A program made the position numbers and the translations under genes. From NCBI GenBank assembly GCA_963803495.1, contig CAWDMP010000001.1, positions 18,417 through 82,416 of the forward strand: DNA of 64,000 nucleotides, read 5' to 3'. Of the stretch, positions 2,945 to 58,217 are shown in pieces (position 1 is the first letter of the stretch; each line of letters begins with the position of its first letter). Under the pieces are notes generated by a model that was given only the letters and a program-made list of their open reading frames with translations, ran no database searches and had not been told where the DNA came from. This DNA comes from an uncultured Cytophagales bacterium. GTDB lineage: Bacteria; Bacteroidota; Bacteroidia; Cytophagales; Spirosomataceae.

Positions 2945-3741
2945 ATGTTTCAAAATCTATTCGCCGATCAAGTGGCGATCGTGACCGGTGCAGGGCAGGG
3001 GATCGGATTGGAAATAGCCCGACAATTGGCTTCGGCAAGGTGCTTCGGTCGTGCTCAACGACGCCGATTCTGTGTTGGCTGCCGAGGCGATGGCGTCGAT
3101 CGTGCGGGAAGGCGGACAGTGCGTGGCTGTGGCTGGCGATGCCGCCGACGAAACTGTGATCGGGCAAATGGTGGCGGTGGCGGCGGAGCATTTCGGAAAG
3201 CTGACGATCGTGGTAGCCAATGCCGGCATTACACTTTTTGGTGATTTTTTTGAGTATCCTGCCACAGACCTTCGGCGCGTTTTGGAGGTGAACTTGGCCG
3301 GTTCGTTTTTGCTTACTCAAGCCGCCGCCCGACAGATGCGCGAGCAACGGTCCGGTGGGCGCATTTTGTTAATGTCGTCGGTGGTAGGCCACCAGGCACA
3401 CCAGAATCTGGCGGCCTACGCCATGACCAAGGCCGGACTGGAAATGCTGGCCAAGAATTTGGTAATTGGAACTCTCGCCCCATGGTATCACAATCAACGC
3501 CGTTGCGCCAGGCGCTACTATTACGGAACGCACCACCGAAGACCCTACTTATGAACAGGTTTGGTCGGGGATAACGCCCATCGGCAATCCAGCGCGGGTA
3601 GCCGACATAGCCCATGCCGCTTTATTTTTGCTATCGCCGGCATCGGGCCACATCACCGGCCAAAGCCTGGTCGTGGATGGCGGCTGGACTGCGGTGAGCC
3701 CGCTGCCCGATTTGAGTAATATGAAAAAAGATGAGAGGTAG
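2945..3741 (+). CDS. SDR-family oxidoreductase, split by two frameshifts (~3040, ~3465)
   Basis: TGAGQGIG, NAG, YAMTK and NAVAPG..VDGG motifs fall in three successive frames. Confidence 0.85.
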
Positions 3742-3801: not shown

Positions 3802-5532
3802 ATGACTAATTCTGAAATAATAGACACCCTCGAACTGACCGCCAAATTGCTGGAACTACACAACGCGGACGGCTTCAAAATCAGGGCGTACAGCGGTGCG
3901 GCATTTAATCTTGATAAGCTGAACGACAAAGAAATAGCCGGTTTGTCTTTCAGTGAGCTGACCGCGCTTCAGGGCGTTGGCAAGGGCGTGGCCGGCAAAA
4001 TCATCGAGCTGGTCGAGAAGGGCAAGGTGAAAGAAACCGAAGAACTGCTCGCCGCCACCCCGCCGGGAGTACTTGAGATGTTCAAAATCAAGGGCATCGG
4101 CCCAAAGAAAATAGCCGCACTTTGGCACGAAGCTGGTATCGAAACCATCGCCGAACTCGAAGCCGCTTGTCAGGATGGCAGCGTTGCCAAGTTGAAAGGG
4201 TTTGGGAAAGGTACCCAGCAGAAAATCCTCGATTCGCTGGACTTTTTGCGAAGCCAGGAAGGGAAACTCCGCATGAATCAGGCGGAAAAGCTCTCACAAC
4301 TGGTACTCGATGTGCTGGAACAAAACTTCGAGCGTGTAGAAGTGGCGGGGGAAATGCGGCGCAAATTAGAAACTGTCGAAACACTTCGCTTCTTGATCGC
4401 CGCCGAATCGCCGATCGCAACCCAGAAAAAGCTGAACGAAATCGAGGTACTTGCTCAGGAAATTCCCAACTCGTCGCCCTTCGTATGGCGGGGGAAAGCG
4501 TTCGATCAGGATATTTTGGTGGAAATCATCGCGGTAGCTCCGGCCAGTATTGAGAGCGAATTGTTCATTCGTAGCGCGGCCGAGGGACATTTAGCGCAGG
4601 AAGCCGCCGAGGGAAACTCGCTTTGGCAAATCGCCCGAGCTGAAAATACGGGCACCGAGGAAGAAATTTACACCAAAGCCGGCCTGCCCTACATCGTGCC
4701 CGAAATGCGGGAGGGTTTCGGGGAATTCGCTTGGGCCGAGCAGCACAAAAACGAGGAGCTAATCACCTGGGACGACCTCAAAGGTATCCTGCACAACCAC
4801 AGTACCTATTCCGACGGACAGAACACGCTGACCGAGATGGCCGACTACTGCCGGGAACTGGGCTTCGAGTATCTGGGCATCGCCGATCATTCCCAAACCG
4901 CTACCTACGCCAACGGCCTGCGCGCCGATCGGGTACGGGCGCAACAGGCCGAAATCGACCAACTCAATACCCGCTACGTCGCCGAAGCCATCGGCAAGCC
5001 TTTTAAAATCCTGAGAGGGATCGAATCGGATATTCTGGGCGATGGGATGCTGGACTACTCCGACGAGGTACTGGCTACCTTCGACTACGTAGTGGCCTCG
5101 GTGCACAGCAACCTCAACATGCCGATGAACAAGGCCACGGACCGCCTGATCACCGCGATTGCTAATCCGTACACCACCATTTTGGGCCACCCCACCGGCC
5201 GCCTACTACTTTCGCGCGACGGCTACCCGATCGACTACCGGGCGGTCATCGATGCCTGCGCCGCGCACAACGTCATCATGGAGATTAACGCCAGCCCTTG
5301 GCGCCTCGACCTTGACTGGCGCTGGATCGGCTATTGCCTCGACAAAGGCGTAAAACTCAGCATCAACCCCGACGCCCACACCACCCAGGGCTACCACGAC
5401 ATGCACTACGGCGTGTCCATTGCCCGCAAAGGAGGCTTGACCAGAGGCATGACGTTCAATGCCTTAACATTACAAGAAATAGAGGATTGGTTGGGAGAAA
5501 AGAAGTCAAAAATTACAACTTCAAAATCGTAA
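3802..5532 (+). CDS. polX: DNA polymerase X / PHP-domain protein
   Basis: N-terminal HhH motifs (GVGKG, GIGPKK, GFGKG). PHP motifs HNHSTYSDG, DH and NPDAH. Polymerase aspartates are degenerate (ETVETLRF). Confidence 0.9.
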   Translation: MTNSEIIDTLELTAKLLELHNADGFKIRAYSGAAFNLDKLNDKEIAGLSFSELTALQGVGKGVAGKIIELVEKGKVKETEELLAATPPGVLEMFKIKGIGPKKIAALWHEAGIETIAELEAACQDGSVAKLKGFGKGTQQKILDSLDFLRSQEGKLRMNQAEKLSQLVLDVLEQNFERVEVAGEMRRKLETVETLRFLIAAESPIATQKKLNEIEVLAQEIPNSSPFVWRGKAFDQDILVEIIAVAPASIESELFIRSAAEGHLAQEAAEGNSLWQIARAENTGTEEEIYTKAGLPYIVPEMREGFGEFAWAEQHKNEELITWDDLKGILHNHSTYSDGQNTLTEMADYCRELGFEYLGIADHSQTATYANGLRADRVRAQQAEIDQLNTRYVAEAIGKPFKILRGIESDILGDGMLDYSDEVLATFDYVVASVHSNLNMPMNKATDRLITAIANPYTTILGHPTGRLLLSRDGYPIDYRAVIDACAAHNVIMEINASPWRLDLDWRWIGYCLDKGVKLSINPDAHTTQGYHDMHYGVSIARKGGLTRGMTFNALTLQEIEDWLGEKKSKITTSKS

Positions 5533-16987: not shown

Positions 16988-17059
16988 GGCCCATTCGTCT
17001 AGCGGTTAGGACACGACCCTTTCACGGTTGAAACAGGGGTTCGATTCCCCTATGGGTCA
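16988..17059 (+). tRNA. tRNA-Glu (anticodon TTC)
   Basis: GGCCCAT/ATGGGTC acceptor stem, anticodon arm CGACC-CTTTCAC-GGTTG, T-arm AGGGG-TTCGATT-CCCCT. CCA is not encoded. Confidence 0.97.
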
Positions 17060-17060
17060 C
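17045..17060 (+). repeat. attL core TTCCCCTATGGGTCAC
   Basis: 3' end of tRNA-Glu; identical to 58202-58217. Confidence 0.93.
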
Positions 17061-17296: not shown

Positions 17297-18574
17297 ATGA
17301 GCATCTATTTTTTCCTGAGAAATGGCCAGAGCGCCAGGGAGGATGAGCATTGCGTTATCTATTGCCAACTCGATGTGAAGGACGTGGGAAAGGGGGTGCC
17401 CTTCTCGACGAAGTTGAAAGTGCCGGCGGGCTTCTGGATGGTAGACTATCCGGCGGCCAAGGCGCGCCGGATCAGGCCCTCGTCGGCCGGCGCGCCGGTG
17501 TCGGCGAGCTACTACCTGGCCGACTCGCTGAACAAGAGTTTGCAGGCGCTGCGCCTGGGCCTGGTCAATGCCAAGGACGGCATCGAGGCGTTGGGCGAAA
17601 ACCCGACGCCGGCGCTGGTGAAGAGTACCTATTATAATGGGGGCCTGCGTCGGAAGCCCAAGACGCTGCTGGCGGTGTGGGACGAGCTGGTGGATGCGCT
17701 GGAAGACCAGGGCCGGGAAGGGTCGACGCTGGTGACGTACAGAACACGGCGCAACAATGTGGTGAAGTGGCTGGCCGATCGGAAGCAACTCCGGCTGTTG
17801 GTGTCGGAGGTGCGGTACCGCCATTGGGAAGACTTCGGCGTGTGGGCGCGGAGCCAGCGGAAACCGGATGGCTCCCGGTTGCTGGGCAAGAATACTATTA
17901 ATAAGCACCTCACTGCCATCAACAAGGCACTCGACTATGCCGTGAACAAGGAGTATCTTTCGTCGAATCCGATCGGATCGCTGAACCTCGAGTACGATCC
18001 TGCCGACGCGCCACATTATTTGCTGGCCGATGACCGGCGGCGGATTGCGGCCTGCGCCCTCAGCTCGCTGCGCGTCGAGCGGGACGTGGCCGTATTTCTG
18101 ATGCATACGGGCTTGAGCTATACCGATTACGTGAGCCTGGGCACGGAGCACTTGGTGACGCTGCCCAATGGGGAGCAGTTTCTTAAGAAAGCCCGGAATA
18201 AGACGAAGATATACTCCATCATCCCACTTCTGCCGGAGGCGTTGGCGGTGATCGGGCGGTGGGGGAGCATCGAGGCGCTGCCCCGGCCGGACCTGAGCGA
18301 CCTGAATAAGGCGCTTAAGATATTGGGTGAAAGCTGCGGGGTTGGTATCTCGCTGTCGACGTCGGTGTTCCGGGATACCTTTAGTAGTATGATGGAAAAC
18401 GAGTTCATGCTGGAGCTCCGGGTGATTATGGTGATGATGGGGCACACGAACCCGCGTCAGCTGCGGAACTATTCGTCGGTGCAGCCGGGGAGGATCCTGC
18501 ACGAGCTGCGGAAACACCAGGCAGAGCAGTTGCCGTTTCGGTTGGAGAATTTGCAGTTGCTAGCGGCGTCGTAA
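17297..18574 (+). CDS. int: Tyrosine integrase (Bacteroidota type: arm-binding, SAM-like and catalytic domains)
   Basis: TGLSYTD, RNKT, FRDTF, MGH and RNY motifs; adjacent to attL. Confidence 0.92.
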   Translation: MSIYFFLRNGQSAREDEHCVIYCQLDVKDVGKGVPFSTKLKVPAGFWMVDYPAAKARRIRPSSAGAPVSASYYLADSLNKSLQALRLGLVNAKDGIEALGENPTPALVKSTYYNGGLRRKPKTLLAVWDELVDALEDQGREGSTLVTYRTRRNNVVKWLADRKQLRLLVSEVRYRHWEDFGVWARSQRKPDGSRLLGKNTINKHLTAINKALDYAVNKEYLSSNPIGSLNLEYDPADAPHYLLADDRRRIAACALSSLRVERDVAVFLMHTGLSYTDYVSLGTEHLVTLPNGEQFLKKARNKTKIYSIIPLLPEALAVIGRWGSIEALPRPDLSDLNKALKILGESCGVGISLSTSVFRDTFSSMMENEFMLELRVIMVMMGHTNPRQLRNYSSVQPGRILHELRKHQAEQLPFRLENLQLLAAS

Positions 18575-19592: not shown

Positions 19593-20504
19593 ATGAATAC
19601 GCAAACGATTTTAACCGACAGCAGCCTTACCAAAACCGAGAAAATACGCCAGCTACTTGCCCTGGGAATAACCCGGCGCGGGGTGGCCGACCTGACCGGC
19701 TGCGGCTACGGGTTTGTACAGAATGTATTTGCCAAGTACTGGCCGGAGCAGGTTAAATCGAAGGGTTTTAACTTCATCCCCTTCAACCGGAAATTTGGCA
19801 TTGAGATTGAAGCCTACGGGGTGCCGATGCGCCGGGTAGCCGAAGCGCTTACCGCGGCCGGGATCAACTGCTACTCCGAGAGCTATAACCACACCAGCTG
19901 CGGCCACTGGAAGGTGGTAACGGACGGCAGCCTGAGCGGCGATAACACTTTCGAGATCGTAAGCCCGATATTGGAAGGAATGAACGGCCTGGCCCAGGTA
20001 GAAACGGTGAGCCGTGTGCTGACCACCCTCCGGGTCAAAATCAACAAAACCTGCGGCTTGCACATCCACTTCGACGCGGCCGGGCTCGGCCTGGAGCAAA
20101 TGAAGAACACCCTGGTAAATTACGCCAGCTACGAAGGCCTTATCGATAGCTTCATGCCCAACAGCCGCCGGGCCGATAACAATACTTACTGCCGGAGCGT
20201 GGTGCGCCTGGCCCTGCAGGCCGACCGGGCCACGAGCATCGGCGAACTGGTAGGCTTGCAGACGACCCGCTACCAGAAAATCAACCTACAGGCTTACAAC
20301 CGCCACCGGACGGTAGAGTTTCGCCAGCACTCAGGTACCATCGAATTTGAAAAAATTAAGAATTGGGTTGTATTTTTGCACAACCTGGTCGAGTACTCGA
20401 AGACCAAGCGCGTAGAAACGCCGAACCTGGCCAGCCTGGCGAAATTCCAGCAGCCAGAAGTACTTACCTATATCCACAACCGGATCAACGACCTAGCCGC
20501 CTAA
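19593..20504 (+). CDS. Putative amidoligase (Amidoligase_2 / COOH-NH2 ligase family) with N-terminal HTH
   Basis: FGIEIE, VTDGSL, FEIVSP, TCGLHIHF, RYQKIN and TVEFRQHSGT motifs. N-terminal KTEKIRQLLALGITRRGVADLTGCGYGFV is HTH-like. Confidence 0.88.
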   Translation: MNTQTILTDSSLTKTEKIRQLLALGITRRGVADLTGCGYGFVQNVFAKYWPEQVKSKGFNFIPFNRKFGIEIEAYGVPMRRVAEALTAAGINCYSESYNHTSCGHWKVVTDGSLSGDNTFEIVSPILEGMNGLAQVETVSRVLTTLRVKINKTCGLHIHFDAAGLGLEQMKNTLVNYASYEGLIDSFMPNSRRADNNTYCRSVVRLALQADRATSIGELVGLQTTRYQKINLQAYNRHRTVEFRQHSGTIEFEKIKNWVVFLHNLVEYSKTKRVETPNLASLAKFQQPEVLTYIHNRINDLAA

Positions 20505-51752: not shown

Positions 51753-53144
51753 TTAACGGATGATTAGGGTGGAAACTTTACTGTCGAATTCGTCGAGGAG
51801 GGTACTGTCGCCGTATTTGCCCAGGCGATTGTGCCAGTATTGGTAGAGTTGGATGCGGTCGTAGTCGCGTCCGCCTTTCAGGCCGCGCGGGGCGGTACCG
51901 GACACGACCGAGTGGACGGCTCGGGCGAGCTGATCGGCCAGCATTTTTGTCTTGCGCTTGGATTTCGCCTGCTTGATCCACTCGTAGGTCCACCAGAAGG
52001 AGCCGCGCTTGTTGGTTCGCTTCTCGTCGAGGTATTGCTGGCGCGAAAAATAGAGCGGGGGGGGCAAAAAGCCGGTCCAGTGGTGTTTCTGGGCGTAGCG
52101 GAGGGCGTTGTCGAGCTGTTGGGTGCGGGTGAGGTAAAGCGTCGTGACCTGGTTGGGCGTCAGCTGGCCCATCCAGGAGCCGAACACTTCCCGCCAGACG
52201 AGCTTGAGCAGGCGGTTTTCGTAATCGGGGCCGATGTAATCGTTGGGCCAGAGCTCGTCTTTGGCGCGTTGCCAAAACTGCGTGGTGAGGTCTTTTTTGA
52301 GGTTTTGAAGCGCCTGATCGGGGTCGACGGGGTCGAGAGGCAAGACTTGTCGAGGTTGAGCAGGGCCAGGGATTCTTAGTTCCTGGCTGTTTCCTGCTCT
52401 CCCGTCGGCCTTTTCTTCATGTGTCTGGTGGTGACTTGTGCCGCCCAAATTTCTTATGATTTCGCCAACGCTCCGAAAGGCGCCGTTTTCGGCCGGAATC
52501 TGGCTCTTTTGCTCTTCGATCCCGGAGGCCTTTCCTATGTCTCCTTTGCCCTGATCGACAACCCGTGAATTTTGTGTTAGCGAAGCGGCAAAGGTGGGTT
52601 TCTCCCACTTCTCCACAAAATTCACACCGCTATTAGAAGATATTATAGATCTTTCTTGTGCCTCATATGAACTTATAGGCGGCAAATTTTGCCGTTGGTG
52701 GGGGGGCGAATCGGGCTCCGGAGTCGATTTTTCGCGTTTTCCCGGTTTTTCCAGTGCCCTGGCGATCGGGGGCTGAAAGTTATCCCCAAAGATGATCCAG
52801 GGGTGTAGCACCAGCTCGAAATCGTTCTGGCGGCCGTGCAGGATTTTCTGCACCAGCCCGGCCCGCTCCAACACGCTGATGCAGTTGTAGACCGTCCGCT
52901 CGCCGCAGCCCACCAGGGTGGCCAGCTCGCGACGGGTGGTGTAGCAGCTGGGGAGCTGGTCGGAGTCGGCCCAGGCGGGGAGCCTCACGACGCGCCTGGC
53001 TTCGGCGATGGCGAGTTCGGTGATGGTTCGGAGCATGGCGTAGCGGTTTTTGTCGATGTTGTTGCAGGCGTGGGCCTGCAAGGTGTTGTGGGCGTTGGTG
53101 GCGGCGTAGACGCGCCGGTAAACGGGTTGATCGGTGATGAGCAT
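51753..53144 (-). CDS. Putative replication initiator (winged-HTH N-terminus, disordered middle)
   Basis: TTRRELATLVGCGERTVYNCISVLERAGLVQK wHTH; position in the early operon. Confidence 0.7.
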   Translation of the reverse strand: MLITDQPVYRRVYAATNAHNTLQAHACNNIDKNRYAMLRTITELAIAEARRVVRLPAWADSDQLPSCYTTRRELATLVGCGERTVYNCISVLERAGLVQKILHGRQNDFELVLHPWIIFGDNFQPPIARALEKPGKREKSTPEPDSPPHQRQNLPPISSYEAQERSIISSNSGVNFVEKWEKPTFAASLTQNSRVVDQGKGDIGKASGIEEQKSQIPAENGAFRSVGEIIRNLGGTSHHQTHEEKADGRAGNSQELRIPGPAQPRQVLPLDPVDPDQALQNLKKDLTTQFWQRAKDELWPNDYIGPDYENRLLKLVWREVFGSWMGQLTPNQVTTLYLTRTQQLDNALRYAQKHHWTGFLPPPLYFSRQQYLDEKRTNKRGSFWWTYEWIKQAKSKRKTKMLADQLARAVHSVVSGTAPRGLKGGRDYDRIQLYQYWHNRLGKYGDSTLLDEFDSKVSTLIIR

Positions 53145-53225
53145 AAGCCTTGGTTGTGATTGAACGAAGCGTACTTTCCCTTACCCGCTTCGGATCGCTC
53201 CGCGCGGTGGACTATAGTCGCTTAA

Positions 53226-53311
53226 TGGTGATGGCCCCAGGGGTCGAACCCGGCTTCTGCTGCCCTCAGTGCACCACACACTCCCAGCAGAAGGGACCGC
53301 ATCCGGCCATC
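53226..53311 (-). ncRNA. 86-nt tRNA-mimic RNA (C4/CI-like antisense regulator candidate)
   Basis: Minus strand: GATGGCC / GGATGCGGTCC / CTTCTGCTG-22 nt loop-CAGCAGAAG / CCGGG-TTCGACC-CCTGG / GGCCATC-A-CCA. This gives a 7-bp acceptor, 5-bp T-stem with TTCGA loop, encoded CCA and a perfect 9-bp helix. Confidence 0.85.
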
Positions 53312-53362
53312 GTGTTGCGCACTGAGTATGCAGCGCGCGCCATGTATTATGAACCATCTACA

Positions 53363-53629
53363 TTATGCGTCTTCGTCGGGGGGCGGGTCAATGCCCTCGA
53401 TGAGCCGGAACAGCGCCTTATCGCGGCGGTGGAGCAGGGTTTGGTAGCGGCAGCCGTAGCGCCGCCAAGTGAAAAAGGAAGATTCGTTCCGGCACTCACG
53501 GACGGCGTCGGACCAGATCGTGTAGGTAGCCAACTGCACGTCGGAGGGGTTCCAATGCCCTTCGAAACTGGCGCAGTAGGCGTCGGCCCAGGCGCGGCTT
53601 TGGCGCATTGTTTCGCTGTTGTGTTTCAT
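53363..53629 (-). CDS. Phage hypothetical protein
   Basis: 88 aa; ends 51 nt upstream of the tRNA-like RNA. Confidence 0.6.
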   Translation of the reverse strand: MKHNSETMRQSRAWADAYCASFEGHWNPSDVQLATYTIWSDAVRECRNESSFFTWRRYGCRYQTLLHRRDKALFRLIEGIDPPPDEDA

Positions 53630-58201: not shown

Positions 58202-58217
58202 TTCCCCTATGGGTCAC
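58202..58217 (+). repeat. attR core TTCCCCTATGGGTCAC
   Basis: Identical to the tRNA-Glu 3' end at 17045-17060. Confidence 0.93.

Follow-up and report, generated by a model that had tools for sequence, protein, structure and literature searches.

A short leader in a prophage early operon encodes a genuine, evolutionarily conserved tRNA-shaped RNA. This element lies in the window, that is, the whole 64-kb stretch of DNA that was analysed, between a small conserved gene and a putative replication-initiator gene (rep). Together with its homologues, it forms an undescribed RNA family absent from Rfam, in which a reduced tRNA-like fold is flanked by a leader hairpin (H1) and trailer motifs. The best model of its function, derived from sequence comparison and held with somewhat less than even confidence, is that the tRNA mimic serves as a 'punctuation' module, a site of processing that separates the early small genes from rep. 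A first-pass annotation had described the same RNA as an antisense switch similar to C4 of phages P1 and P7 and CI of phage P4; its sequence and coordinates (53311-53226, minus strand) were recovered on re-check. The features are collected in Table 1.

Table 1. Features of the leader and its flanking genes in the window.
Feature	Position	Strand	Basis or remark
Conserved small ORF, 88 aa, directly upstream of the leader	53363..53629	-	Synteny
Hairpin H1, 8-bp stem GCGCGCUG/CAGUGCGC, loop CAUACU	53317..53338	-	Conserved, covarying
Proposed upstream target of the central loop, CTCAGTGCGCAACAC	53312..53326	-	Covers the final two H1 loop nucleotides, the entire 3' strand of H1 and the 5-nt spacer
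tRNA-like core	53229..53311	-	Folding, family alignment, covariation
Core: acceptor 5' strand	53311-53305	-	
Core: mini D arm, GGA-UGCGG-UCC	53304-53294	-	
Core: central stem, 9 bp	53293-53285 with 53262-53254	-	
Core: central loop, 22 nt	53284-53263	-	3' side bears anticodon-loop-like CUGAGGG
Core: T stem	53253-53249 with 53241-53237	-	
Core: T loop, UUCGACC	53248-53242	-	
Core: acceptor 3' strand	53236-53230	-	
Core: discriminator A	53229	-	
Encoded CCA	53226..53228	-	Window phage and X1 only
Proposed downstream target of the central loop, AGTCCACCGCGC	53202..53213	-	Overlaps the 5' side of H2
Trailer hairpin H2, CCGC-G-CGGA-GCGA-UCCG-AA-GCGG	53185..53207	-	Whole-leader fold predictions
G-rich box, GGGTAAGGGAAAGTACGC, directly 3' of H2	53169..53186	-	Trailer alignment
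Putative replication initiator, 463 aa, HTH; first gene after the leader	51753..53144	-	

Folding of the isolated 89-nt RNA reproduced the acceptor stem (GAUGGCC/GGCCAUC), the 9-bp helix with its 22-nt loop and the T arm (CCGGG-UUCGACC-CCUGG, then A and CCA) described in the annotation. What had been taken for an 11-nt linker in place of the D arm is really a miniature D arm. Its stem of 2-4 bp covaries across the family (GGA/UCC, GG/CC, GCA/UGC, GCA/UGU and GC/GC), and its loop contains GG in every unit; such a D loop can form a tRNA elbow. When a strict descriptor (7/7 acceptor pairs, 5/5 T pairs and a TTCRANN loop) was applied to the window, only two matches were obtained, namely the host tRNA-Glu and the element. 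The description as a tRNA mimic and not a canonical tRNA was also borne out, with ARAGORN and the Rfam tRNA model both silent on a molecule with a 9-bp stem and a 22-nt loop. Taken alone, the fold energy is only modestly unusual (z = -1.8; 9 of 200 shuffled sequences were equally stable), and it is the comparative evidence, not this energy, that is decisive for the reality of the fold.

Homologous units occur at L001/L002, L003, L091-97, L099, L101, L103 and L140, representing about seven independent phage or prophage loci in a small group of temperate Bacteroidota-type phages. The catalogue comprises 12 units (11 plus that of L140), with one to three tandem copies per gap and two or three in L099, L101 and L103. 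In the alignment of the nine distinct cores, 96.7% of cells are paired, compared with at most 51% in slid controls, and 12 of the 20 pairs are altered on both sides. The covariation score is 0.588 against 0.239 in shuffles, and none of 500 shuffles scored as high; the stem covariation in homologous leaders that the annotation had proposed as a check is therefore strong. Compensatory changes in the acceptor, the T stem and H1 persist even though the Rep proteins have diverged to 22-23% identity. G-U pairs occur on the sense strand only, which indicates that the conserved molecule is an RNA transcribed from the operon strand.

The 7-bp acceptor, the 5-bp T stem, the UUCRA T loop, the GG of the reduced D loop and the discriminator recur in nearly every catalogued unit, the exceptions being the 6-bp acceptors of L099 u1 and u3 and a T-stem mismatch in L099 u1. 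The minihelix, the elbow and the discriminator are the sole conserved parts of the core, and the central arm is free to vary, from complete absence in L099 u1 to 9 bp with a 22-nt loop. Least conserved of all is the central loop: L001 and L091 have one of 7-9 nt, the loops of L101 and L140 are unrelated, and L099 u1 has none. Sixteen of 20 loop nucleotides are common to the window and L003, whose Rep proteins are 53% identical. ARAGORN recognises only one homologue, that of L001, which it scores as tRNA-Leu(gag), and this call hints at an origin from a tRNA; judging from sequence, the element probably descended from a tRNA-Leu(GAG)-like gene.

Rfam models were run against the whole window at the gathering threshold, where C4 and c4-a1b1 gave no match, and against positions 53000-53500 at E <= 10. 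In these local 501 nt, no match was obtained for C4, c4-a1b1, tRNA, tmRNA or Y RNA, all of which the annotation had listed for checking. Its statement that no such system was known agrees with these results, as Rfam gave no family match and no account of a comparable element turned up in a literature search. Viral contigs, scanned by protein and by pattern, contained no close relatives, and an acceptor/T-arm pattern matched only a phage tRNA-Met in viral contigs. A first metagenome pattern scan returned no members, and with looser patterns the matches in genomes and metagenomes were all true tRNAs or chance occurrences, none of them combining 7/7 acceptor pairs, 5/5 T pairs and H1. Among 80 matches in a short-unit scan, the sole family member was L206, which is the same as L140. 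No match was found by blastn and tblastn among deposited phage genomes.

The genomic context of the family is fixed. In all member loci, the same gap is filled: a small conserved ORF is followed by the leader with its unit(s) and then by a Rep-like gene, with the element on the operon strand. Homologues of the 88-aa ORF stand directly before the leader in L001, L003, L091-99, L101, L103 and L140, so that the ORF is syntenic in every element-bearing locus. Its product has no match in Pfam or PHROG; the AF2 model is a four-helix structure (pLDDT 77), for which a PDB fold search gave no match and no recognisable RNA- or DNA-binding fold. PHROG links the 463-aa protein encoded after the leader weakly to a replication initiation protein and a DnaD-like loader (E = 1.6e-5 to 2e-4), and Pfam links it, also weakly, to an HTH. 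In L101 (E = 3e-14) and L091 (E = 2e-10), the gene after the leader encodes a distant homologue of this protein. The placement in the early operon about 80 nt before rep, given earlier, agrees with the 81 nt found between the element and this putative replication-initiator gene. Between the small ORF and rep of the window, neither a sigma-70-type terminator signal nor, by eye, a Bacteroidetes-type -33/-7 promoter motif was found. L136 and L137 have this small ORF too, but there a long hairpin with T8 comes after it, together with a different replication gene, which makes the junction a transcript boundary in related phages.

The motifs flanking the core are also conserved. H1 stands before every family unit except L099 u3. 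Its loop-proximal CUG/CAG and its loop pattern C-N-N-N-C-U are nearly invariant, and its outer stem shows 3-4 pair types per position, with five of the eight pairs altered on both sides. When the segment from H1 through CCA is folded alone, H1 forms with a pair probability of about 1, and its distance to the predicted RNase P site is consistently 2-5 nt. On the other side of the core, a G+C-rich hairpin occupies the H2 position in all trailers; among its counterparts are CCACGCCAGG/CCUGGCGUGG in L101 and CCGCGCCGGG/CCUGGCGCGG in L091. The G-rich box reads GGGTAAGGGRAAG in L091, L099, L101 and L103 and is of the GGGGAA type in L001, L003 and L005. Pairing of this box with the central stem or the H1 loop was considered by eye and rejected, as it amounted to 4-6 bp of low complexity that were inconsistent across loci. 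Exact-pattern matches to the box in the viral contigs L133-L135 have no H1/tRNA-like unit in the 260 nt upstream and look like chance occurrences.

At the 3' end, the discriminator is usually A, followed by C, across the family. The encoded CCA noted in the annotation is present in the window, but it is no family feature, being found otherwise only in X1, a close relative with about 92% identity. The remaining units have A-C-U/A at this position, as in the host tRNA-Glu gene (A followed by CTAACC). Trailers that start in this way and contain no CCA are of the substrate type for RNase Z.

According to the punctuation model, the element would be transcribed within the prophage early operon as part of a composite leader in the order H1, a 2-5 nt spacer, tRNA-like unit(s), H2, the G-rich box and the replication-initiator gene. 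Host RNase P would cut 5' of G53311, and RNase Z, or a 3' exonuclease in the CCA-bearing window phage, would cut or trim after A53229/CCA. The upstream small-gene mRNA would then be left ending in H1 and the rep mRNA starting near H2, with both hairpins presumably serving as protective ends, and a small tRNA-like RNA would be set free; any effect on rep expression is likewise putative.

Several lines of evidence argue for such processing. The conserved parts are those that tRNA-processing enzymes read, that is, the 7-bp acceptor/5-bp T stack, the UUCRA loop, the GG D loop and the discriminator, and it is only the minihelix, the elbow and the discriminator that are conserved within the core. 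The architecture is maintained by compensatory changes at about seven independent loci, with G-U pairs confined to the sense strand, tandem arrays in L099, L101 and L103, and a constant 2-5 nt spacing between H1 and the RNase P site. Trailers resembling that of the host tRNA-Glu gene, without CCA, and the L136/L137 terminator at the same junction point in the same direction. RNase P is known to cleave tRNA-like structures within mRNAs and phage RNAs (PMC11143913), and the element is a plausible substrate of this enzyme.

Other observations are counted against processing. It does not account for the near-invariant H1 loop and closing pairs (CUG-CUUACU-CAG), for the conserved G-rich box, or for the loop nucleotides shared between the window and L003. 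In the full 218-nt window leader, the tRNA fold reaches an ensemble probability of about 15% under a nearest-neighbour model that is blind to tertiary contacts and co-transcriptional folding. In addition, a hairpin 2-5 nt upstream could obstruct binding of the RNase P protein subunit.

Comparison with known RNAs offers further support. Like mascRNA/menRNA (RF01684), the element is a reduced cloverleaf that combines a 7-bp acceptor and a canonical T arm with a GG-bearing D arm of 3 bp and an anticodon arm that is short or variable. The mascRNA-menRNA model is the best Rfam architecture match for three independent units, with 27.7 bits in L002, 26.3 in L138 and 23.2 in L140, all below the 42.5-bit gathering threshold, and this similarity favours processing; the model gave no match to the window element. 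Within its longer transcript, mascRNA is freed by RNase P and RNase Z, which makes the 3' end of the upstream RNA, and a structure just upstream guards this new end (PMC8457004, PMC11693755). That structure is a triple helix, whereas the phage element is preceded by a simple hairpin, H1, and its cleavage is presumed. As mascRNA is a vertebrate nuclear RNA, the likeness is one of analogy, not homology.

Punctuation by tRNAs or tRNA-like structures is exemplified by the t-elements of plant mitochondria and, for bacterial tRNA genes co-transcribed with mRNAs, by the tufB operon of E. coli. Between cistrons, such folds act as RNase P and RNase Z sites that set mRNA ends (PMC8003010). Unlike organellar punctuation and t-elements, the phage element has a dedicated conserved leader hairpin and trailer motifs, and a literature search found no description of tRNA punctuation in a phage early operon.

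With canonical phage tRNA-Leu GAG, the element shares the acceptor, the T arm, the discriminator A and, in some units, YUGAGGR. It departs from a canonical tRNA in the 9-bp 'anticodon' stem, the 22-nt loop, G8 instead of U8 and the 3-bp D stem of the window copy, and some units have no anticodon arm or anticodon-like loop. The acceptor/T-arm mimicry and reduced D region recall the tRNA-like domain of tmRNA and YrlA. Unlike tmRNA, the element has no G3-U70 (its third acceptor pair is U-A), no tag ORF and no pseudoknots; the topology of YrlA is permuted, and that of the element is not. The tmRNA and Y-RNA models of Rfam gave nothing in the window and only a 17-nt T-arm fragment in L140.

Alternatively, the released tRNA-like RNA may itself be the functional product, acting via proteins and not via base pairing, with operon processing merely making it; this is judged unlikely. 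Such an RNA could be, for example, a decoy or substitute for a host nuclease or toxin directed at tRNA-Leu or at the acceptor/elbow; it could also undergo CCA addition or aminoacylation, or act as a sponge that takes up a tRNA-binding factor. The retained elbow and acceptor, the tRNA-Leu(gag) call on L001, the loop conserved between the window and L003 and the early-operon location would all suit this role, and tandem copies would increase the dose. Several units also carry the anticodon-loop-like YUGAGGR (C32 U33 G-A-G G37 A38), but half of the units do not, and central stems of 9-10 bp exclude ribosomal decoding. No partner protein or defence system was identifiable, and neither the strict placement of the element after the small ORF and before rep nor its H1/H2/G-box context would be explained.

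The invariant synteny with the 88-aa ORF raises the possibility, regarded as quite unlikely, of a cis-acting leader that works by nut/put-like antitermination, attenuation or autoregulation, with H1 binding a protein, for example the always-adjacent 88-aa product or Rep, and the tRNA-like fold as a scaffold. H1, with its sequence-conserved loop and closing pairs and its covarying outer stem, is typical of a protein-recognised hairpin. In phage lambda, nutR/tR1 precedes O and P, a matching position, and in L136 and L137 this junction is occupied by a terminator. Against this, no terminator-like signal follows the window leader, the 88-aa protein has no recognisable RNA- or DNA-binding fold, and a leader of this type has no need for a tRNA-type T loop, a GG D loop or a 7+5-bp stack.

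The C4/CI-like mechanism favoured by the first-pass annotation, in which an RNA released by RNase P would pair with its own transcript, also in cis, to block or attenuate rep and confer immunity, now appears distinctly improbable. Like C4 and CI, the element is a small structured RNA on the sense strand of a temperate-phage operon, and its window copy shares with them an encoded CCA and a loop complementary to the leader. P4 CI sits upstream of replication genes, a parallel placement. Through their acceptor-like terminal stem, C4 and CI are substrates of RNase P (Hartmann et al. 1995, cited in PMC11143913). A complete T arm of the tRNA type and a D loop with GG set the element apart from C4 and CI, which have neither. 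The element also conserves neither its loop-target complementarities nor its CCA, comes from a different host phylum and has no Rfam C4 or c4-a1b1 match at E <= 10.

The proposed targets fare no better. The upstream 15-nt complement exists (13 Watson-Crick pairs, one G-U and one mismatch; -23.1 kcal/mol), but it is only weakly significant, with p = 0.016 against shuffled targets and p = 0.15 against shuffled loops, and it overlaps H1, which uses the same nucleotides and whose pairing is backed by covariation. It is unexceptional genome-wide, as it ranks about seventh on its own strand in the prophage, where about 14 other sites pair with the central loop as well or better. In X1, changes at 53320, 53314 and 53313 break two of the 15 pairs, with no compensating loop change, and in L003 the complement is not significant (p > 0.4). 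For the downstream target, pairing is as good as expected by chance (p = 0.21 and 0.32) and the trailers show no conserved counterpart; the ATGCGGT/GCTGCAT linker pairing falls inside H1 and has no counterpart among homologues. The conservation of loop and target in homologues, another suggested check, was not observed: the complementarities are neither conserved nor covarying. A search of the prophage and L003 found no trans target of the loop common to both. Furthermore, an L-shaped fold keeps the loop from reaching H1 in cis, and in L001 a classical HTH_3 repressor adjoins the operon, so immunity there is probably protein-based. With a variable loop, weak or chance targets, an unconserved CCA and a silent Rfam C4 model, the antisense proposal is not sustained.

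Two observations still speak for pairing between loop and leader. In the window, the fold with H1 and the cloverleaf (-79.1 kcal/mol) and the mutually exclusive one with the leader-loop duplex (-79.5 kcal/mol) are nearly isoenergetic, at most 0.4 kcal/mol apart; these calculated energies make a conformational switch conceivable for the window phage alone, and one may exist there. In addition, CUCAG in H1 and CUGAG in the anticodon-like loop, a 5-nt complementarity, co-occur in five of 12 units (window, L003, L001, L091 and L099 u2), with a sixth pair that is U-A in the window, G-C in L003 and G-U in L001. Both sides are invariant, which places the 5-nt pairing beyond the reach of covariation. 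On the other hand, L101, L103, L140 and L099 u1/u3 have no such loop motif and yet retain H1 and the tRNA core. It is very improbable that the element is a tRNA-Leu-derived riboregulator whose loop CUGAG (lengthened to 15 nt in the window phage) reads the 'codon' CUC-A-G on H1 of its own precursor. If true, this would be a phage interaction resembling a T-box or C4, with feedback on RNase P processing or rep read-through, and would provide RNA-based lysogeny or superinfection control in Bacteroidota phages.

The least probable reading, that of a DNA-level element (replication origin, Rep iterons or palindromic operator) or a functionless, decaying phage tRNA gene, could draw on the adjoining rep gene, the recurrence in L099 and L101 of H1 cores readable as iterons, the near-palindromic H1 and the homologue that still scores as a tRNA, but it conflicts with sense-strand-only G-U pairs (C-A mismatches on the other strand or in duplex DNA), with the conserved tRNA-specific T loop and GG, with the single H1 core in the window's prophage and with compensatory changes that persist at 22% Rep identity, against neutral decay.

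RNA-level gene control in Bacteroidota is poorly known. If the punctuation model is true, both the tRNA punctuation of organelles and the mascRNA type of 3'-end formation would have a counterpart in a bacterial virus, and temperate phages of Bacteroidota would use host tRNA-maturation enzymes to uncouple early from replication genes. Whatever the mechanism, these phages carry an undescribed RNA family with clear covariation and a fixed genomic context, which illustrates one route from a tRNA gene to a non-decoding element.

The prophage, of ~41 kb, is integrated in the tRNA-Glu gene (16988-17060) and bounded by a 16-nt direct repeat, TTCCCCTATGGGTCAC, at 17045-17060 and 58202-58217, which is identical to the 3' end of that tRNA-Glu(UUC) gene. 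The Pfam families Phage_int_SAM_5, DUF4136, DUF4494 and DUF4468, typical of Bacteroidota, are found in the window and in its relatives. An Amidoligase_2 family protein (E = 1.3e-40) is encoded near the integrase end (19593-20504, + strand), while the right end of the prophage (56-58 kb) is low in G+C (0.435) and encodes a membrane protein, one with a HIRAN domain and one of 99 aa with a weak HTH match. The tRNA-like element lies within a minus-strand series of small genes, from 56278 down to 48791, in a 218-nt gap between ORFs of 88 and 463 aa. PHROG links the 463-aa product weakly to replication initiators and DnaD-like loaders, and its HTH match is likewise weak, so that its name, Rep, is a reasonable but soft annotation.

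Features of the prophage and of the tRNA-like units (bp + nt, stem and loop of the central arm)
Feature	Position	Strand	Place or form
Tyrosine integrase	17297-18574	+	prophage
88-aa small ORF	53363-53629	minus	upstream side of gap
Leader hairpin H1	53338-53317	minus	window; GCGCGCUG-CAUACU-CAGUGCGC
tRNA-like element incl. CCA	53311-53226	minus	inside 218-nt gap
463-aa ORF (Rep)	51753-53144	minus	downstream side of gap
Central arm, window			9 bp + 22 nt
Central arm, L003			8 bp + 20 nt
Central arm, L001 and L091			9-10 bp + 7-9-nt loop
Central arm, L101 and L140			5 bp + 8 nt or 27 nt, unrelated loops
Central arm, L099 u1			none

The sequence read by the first-pass annotation is exact: GAUGGCC-GGAUGCGGUCC-CUUCUGCUG-(22 nt)-CAGCAGAAG-CCGGG-UUCGACC-CCUGG-GGCCAUC-A-CCA. 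Folded in isolation, it gives a cloverleaf-like minimum-energy structure (-40.8 kcal/mol), no more than a modest gain in stability over shuffles (z = -1.8). ARAGORN reports the host tRNA-Glu(UUC) as the sole tRNA of the window, and a strict descriptor scan matches the element and this true tRNA, nothing else. The Rfam search proposed in that annotation gave no match at the element at the gathering threshold, and none in the 501 nt around it with the cutoff relaxed to E <= 10. A 58-aa ATG ORF (53181-53357, minus strand) spans H1 and the element; it is probably spurious, because the equivalent site in the related loci L001 and L003 has no called gene. A sigma-70-like TTGACC-18-CATAAT (10/12 matches; 53391-53362, minus strand) overlaps the stop codon of the 88-aa ORF, although Bacteroidota promoters are normally unlike the sigma-70 type. 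Just past that stop, GGTTCATAAT (53353-53344, minus strand) recurs in L099 and partially in L001, L091 and L098, and could be a T-arm remnant.

Rep homologues are rare, forming 7 clusters in a set of 5.8 billion proteins, and all of their loci with upstream sequence (L001/L002, L003) have the same ~220-nt gap with a homologous tRNA-like element. Additional loci were found with the small upstream ORF (L091-L097, L098, L099), with a pattern of leader hairpin plus T loop (L101, L103) and by a protein scan (L140), and one public run, X1, contains a ~92% identical relative. In X1, the 88-aa ORF has 68 unrelated nt at its 3' end in place of 70 (window 53350-53421), with leader and rep still collinear. 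The post-leader gene of L091 and L101 encodes a distant Rep homologue (22-23% identity; E = 2e-10 and 3e-14), so that the module of small ORF, leader and Rep has persisted through deep divergence. Tandem units occupy single gaps, with three in L099 and two each in L101 and L103. L091 carries a degenerate additional copy 5' of its intact unit (5270-5315), with an H1-like hairpin, a T-run and the remnant GGGTTCGATG, pointing to a duplicated unit that later decayed. IMG genome 2881096153 has this leader in three prophages (L101, L103, L140); in L101 (5020-6746, minus strand), genes for a UmuC/ImpB-like polymerase and an S24 peptidase (UmuD/LexA-like), read by eye from translations, lie downstream of the replication module. 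Overall, the element is rare: the collections searched yield about 7 independent loci.

Eleven units were dissected by hand, each checked against its source, and covariation was computed on 9 distinct core sequences. Standard pairs fill 96.7% of cells, both sides have changed in 12 of 20 pairs, and the covariation score is 0.588 against 0.239 for shuffles (0/500 reach the observed value); with partners slid by 1-3 columns, pairing is 51% or less. The acceptor stem varies among GAUGGCC, GGUGGCC (with two different 3' strands), GAAAGCU, GGCAUG and others, and the T stem among CCGGG/CCUGG, CCUGG/CCAGG, UGGGG/CCCCA, CCGGG/CCCGG and others. The structure is under selection, and the wobble pairs, all on the operon strand, point to its acting as RNA. 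The 11-nt segment described as a linker replacing the D-arm is present but is itself a small D arm, with a covarying stem of 2-4 bp and a loop GG, equivalent to G18-G19, in every unit. With this, with the covarying stems and with a T loop that is UUCRANN throughout, the family retains what builds the tRNA elbow and the 12-bp acceptor/T stack. The encoded CCA of the window recurs in X1 only and is not family-wide; the host tRNA-Glu gene has none.

In ARAGORN the L001 unit comes out as tRNA-Leu(gag), as does the second L099 unit at a relaxed threshold. In L001, L091 and the second L099 unit the motif YUGAGGR, which reads C32-U33-GAG-G37-A38, is carried by an over-long stem; in the window and L003 it is retained within the enlarged loop, on the 3' side. 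On these grounds, the family appears to be a tRNA-Leu(GAG)-type gene whose decoding geometry was lost while processing and elbow features were kept.

An H1-type hairpin lies 2-5 nt upstream of every unit except the third of L099. Its loop (mostly CUUACU) and loop-proximal CUG/CAG are nearly invariant, and its outer pairs covary (GCACCCUG/CAGGGUGC, GUACCCUG/CAGGGUAC, GCGUCCUG/CAGGGCGC, UGUCUG/CAGGCA). Every trailer has a G+C-rich hairpin, H2, and after it a G-rich box, with the sequence GGGUAAGGGRAAG in the window, L091, L099, L101 and L103. The related viral contigs L136 and L137 (about 3240-3345) keep the small-ORF homologue, with H1 and the unit replaced by a long hairpin, CCCCCCTGCT...AGCAGGGGGG, then T8, in the shape of an intrinsic terminator. 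In its 5' arm (CCTGCTTTCATACT) this hairpin is similar to the 5' half of H1; the replication gene behind it is a different one, its N-terminus primase/VirE-like by eye.

What the family conserves is what RNase P, RNase Z and the CCA-adding enzyme are known to recognise. The favoured model is therefore a punctuation module, as argued by the strictly intercistronic position in sense orientation, the tolerance of tandem units, the mascRNA-type match and the L136/L137 arrangement, which makes the junction downstream of the small ORF a transcript boundary in related phages too. Cleavage of the unit by RNase P and RNase Z would leave the upstream mRNA ending in hairpin H1 and the rep mRNA with H2 close to its start, with possible protection of these ends and a possible consequence for rep. 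A search for RNA data turned up no run covering the region. RNase P substrates include tRNA-like, phage and mRNA ones (PMC11143913). For three independent units, the nearest Rfam architecture is mascRNA/menRNA, at 27.7, 26.3 and 23.2 bits, all below the threshold of 42.5; mascRNA is a tRNA mimic whose processing by RNase P and RNase Z gives the RNA upstream of it its 3' end (PMC8457004, PMC11693755).

Left unexplained by the punctuation model are the sequence conservation of the H1 loop, the G-box and the conservation of the loop between the window and L003, and two protein-mediated rivals are therefore kept: a released RNA acting via proteins, and a protein-bound H1. A C4/CI-like antisense mechanism, in which the central loop pairs with upstream and downstream sites, is possible as a lineage-specific addition only. 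The upstream duplex does exist (-23.1 kcal/mol by RNAduplex, 22-nt loop against upstream flank), with weak significance (p = 0.016 for shuffled targets, 0.15 for shuffled loops); its target, 53326-53312, comprises the last two H1 loop nucleotides, the entire H1 3' strand and the spacer, and about 14 prophage sites pair with the loop equally well. Two points still speak for the mechanism. CUCAG in H1 and CUGAG in the loop occur together in five units, both invariant, so covariation is uninformative on this pairing. In the full window leader, H1 plus cloverleaf (-79.1 kcal/mol) and the leader-loop duplex (-79.5 kcal/mol) are nearly isoenergetic, whereas H1 plus cloverleaf is the minimum-energy fold of the full L001 and L003 leaders and has probability ~1 in the window H1-to-CCA segment by itself. 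As a family property the mechanism is unsupported: the proposed downstream pairing (-20.1 kcal/mol) does not stand out from shuffles (p = 0.21 and 0.32), neither flank pairs significantly in L003, X1 has an identical loop but a leader differing at 53320, 53314 and 53313 (2/15 pairs broken, no compensation), and across the family no part varies more than the central arm.

No Rfam family, deposited phage genome or paper describing the element was found. It belongs among the tRNA-like processing elements and tRNA mimics, as a new variant.
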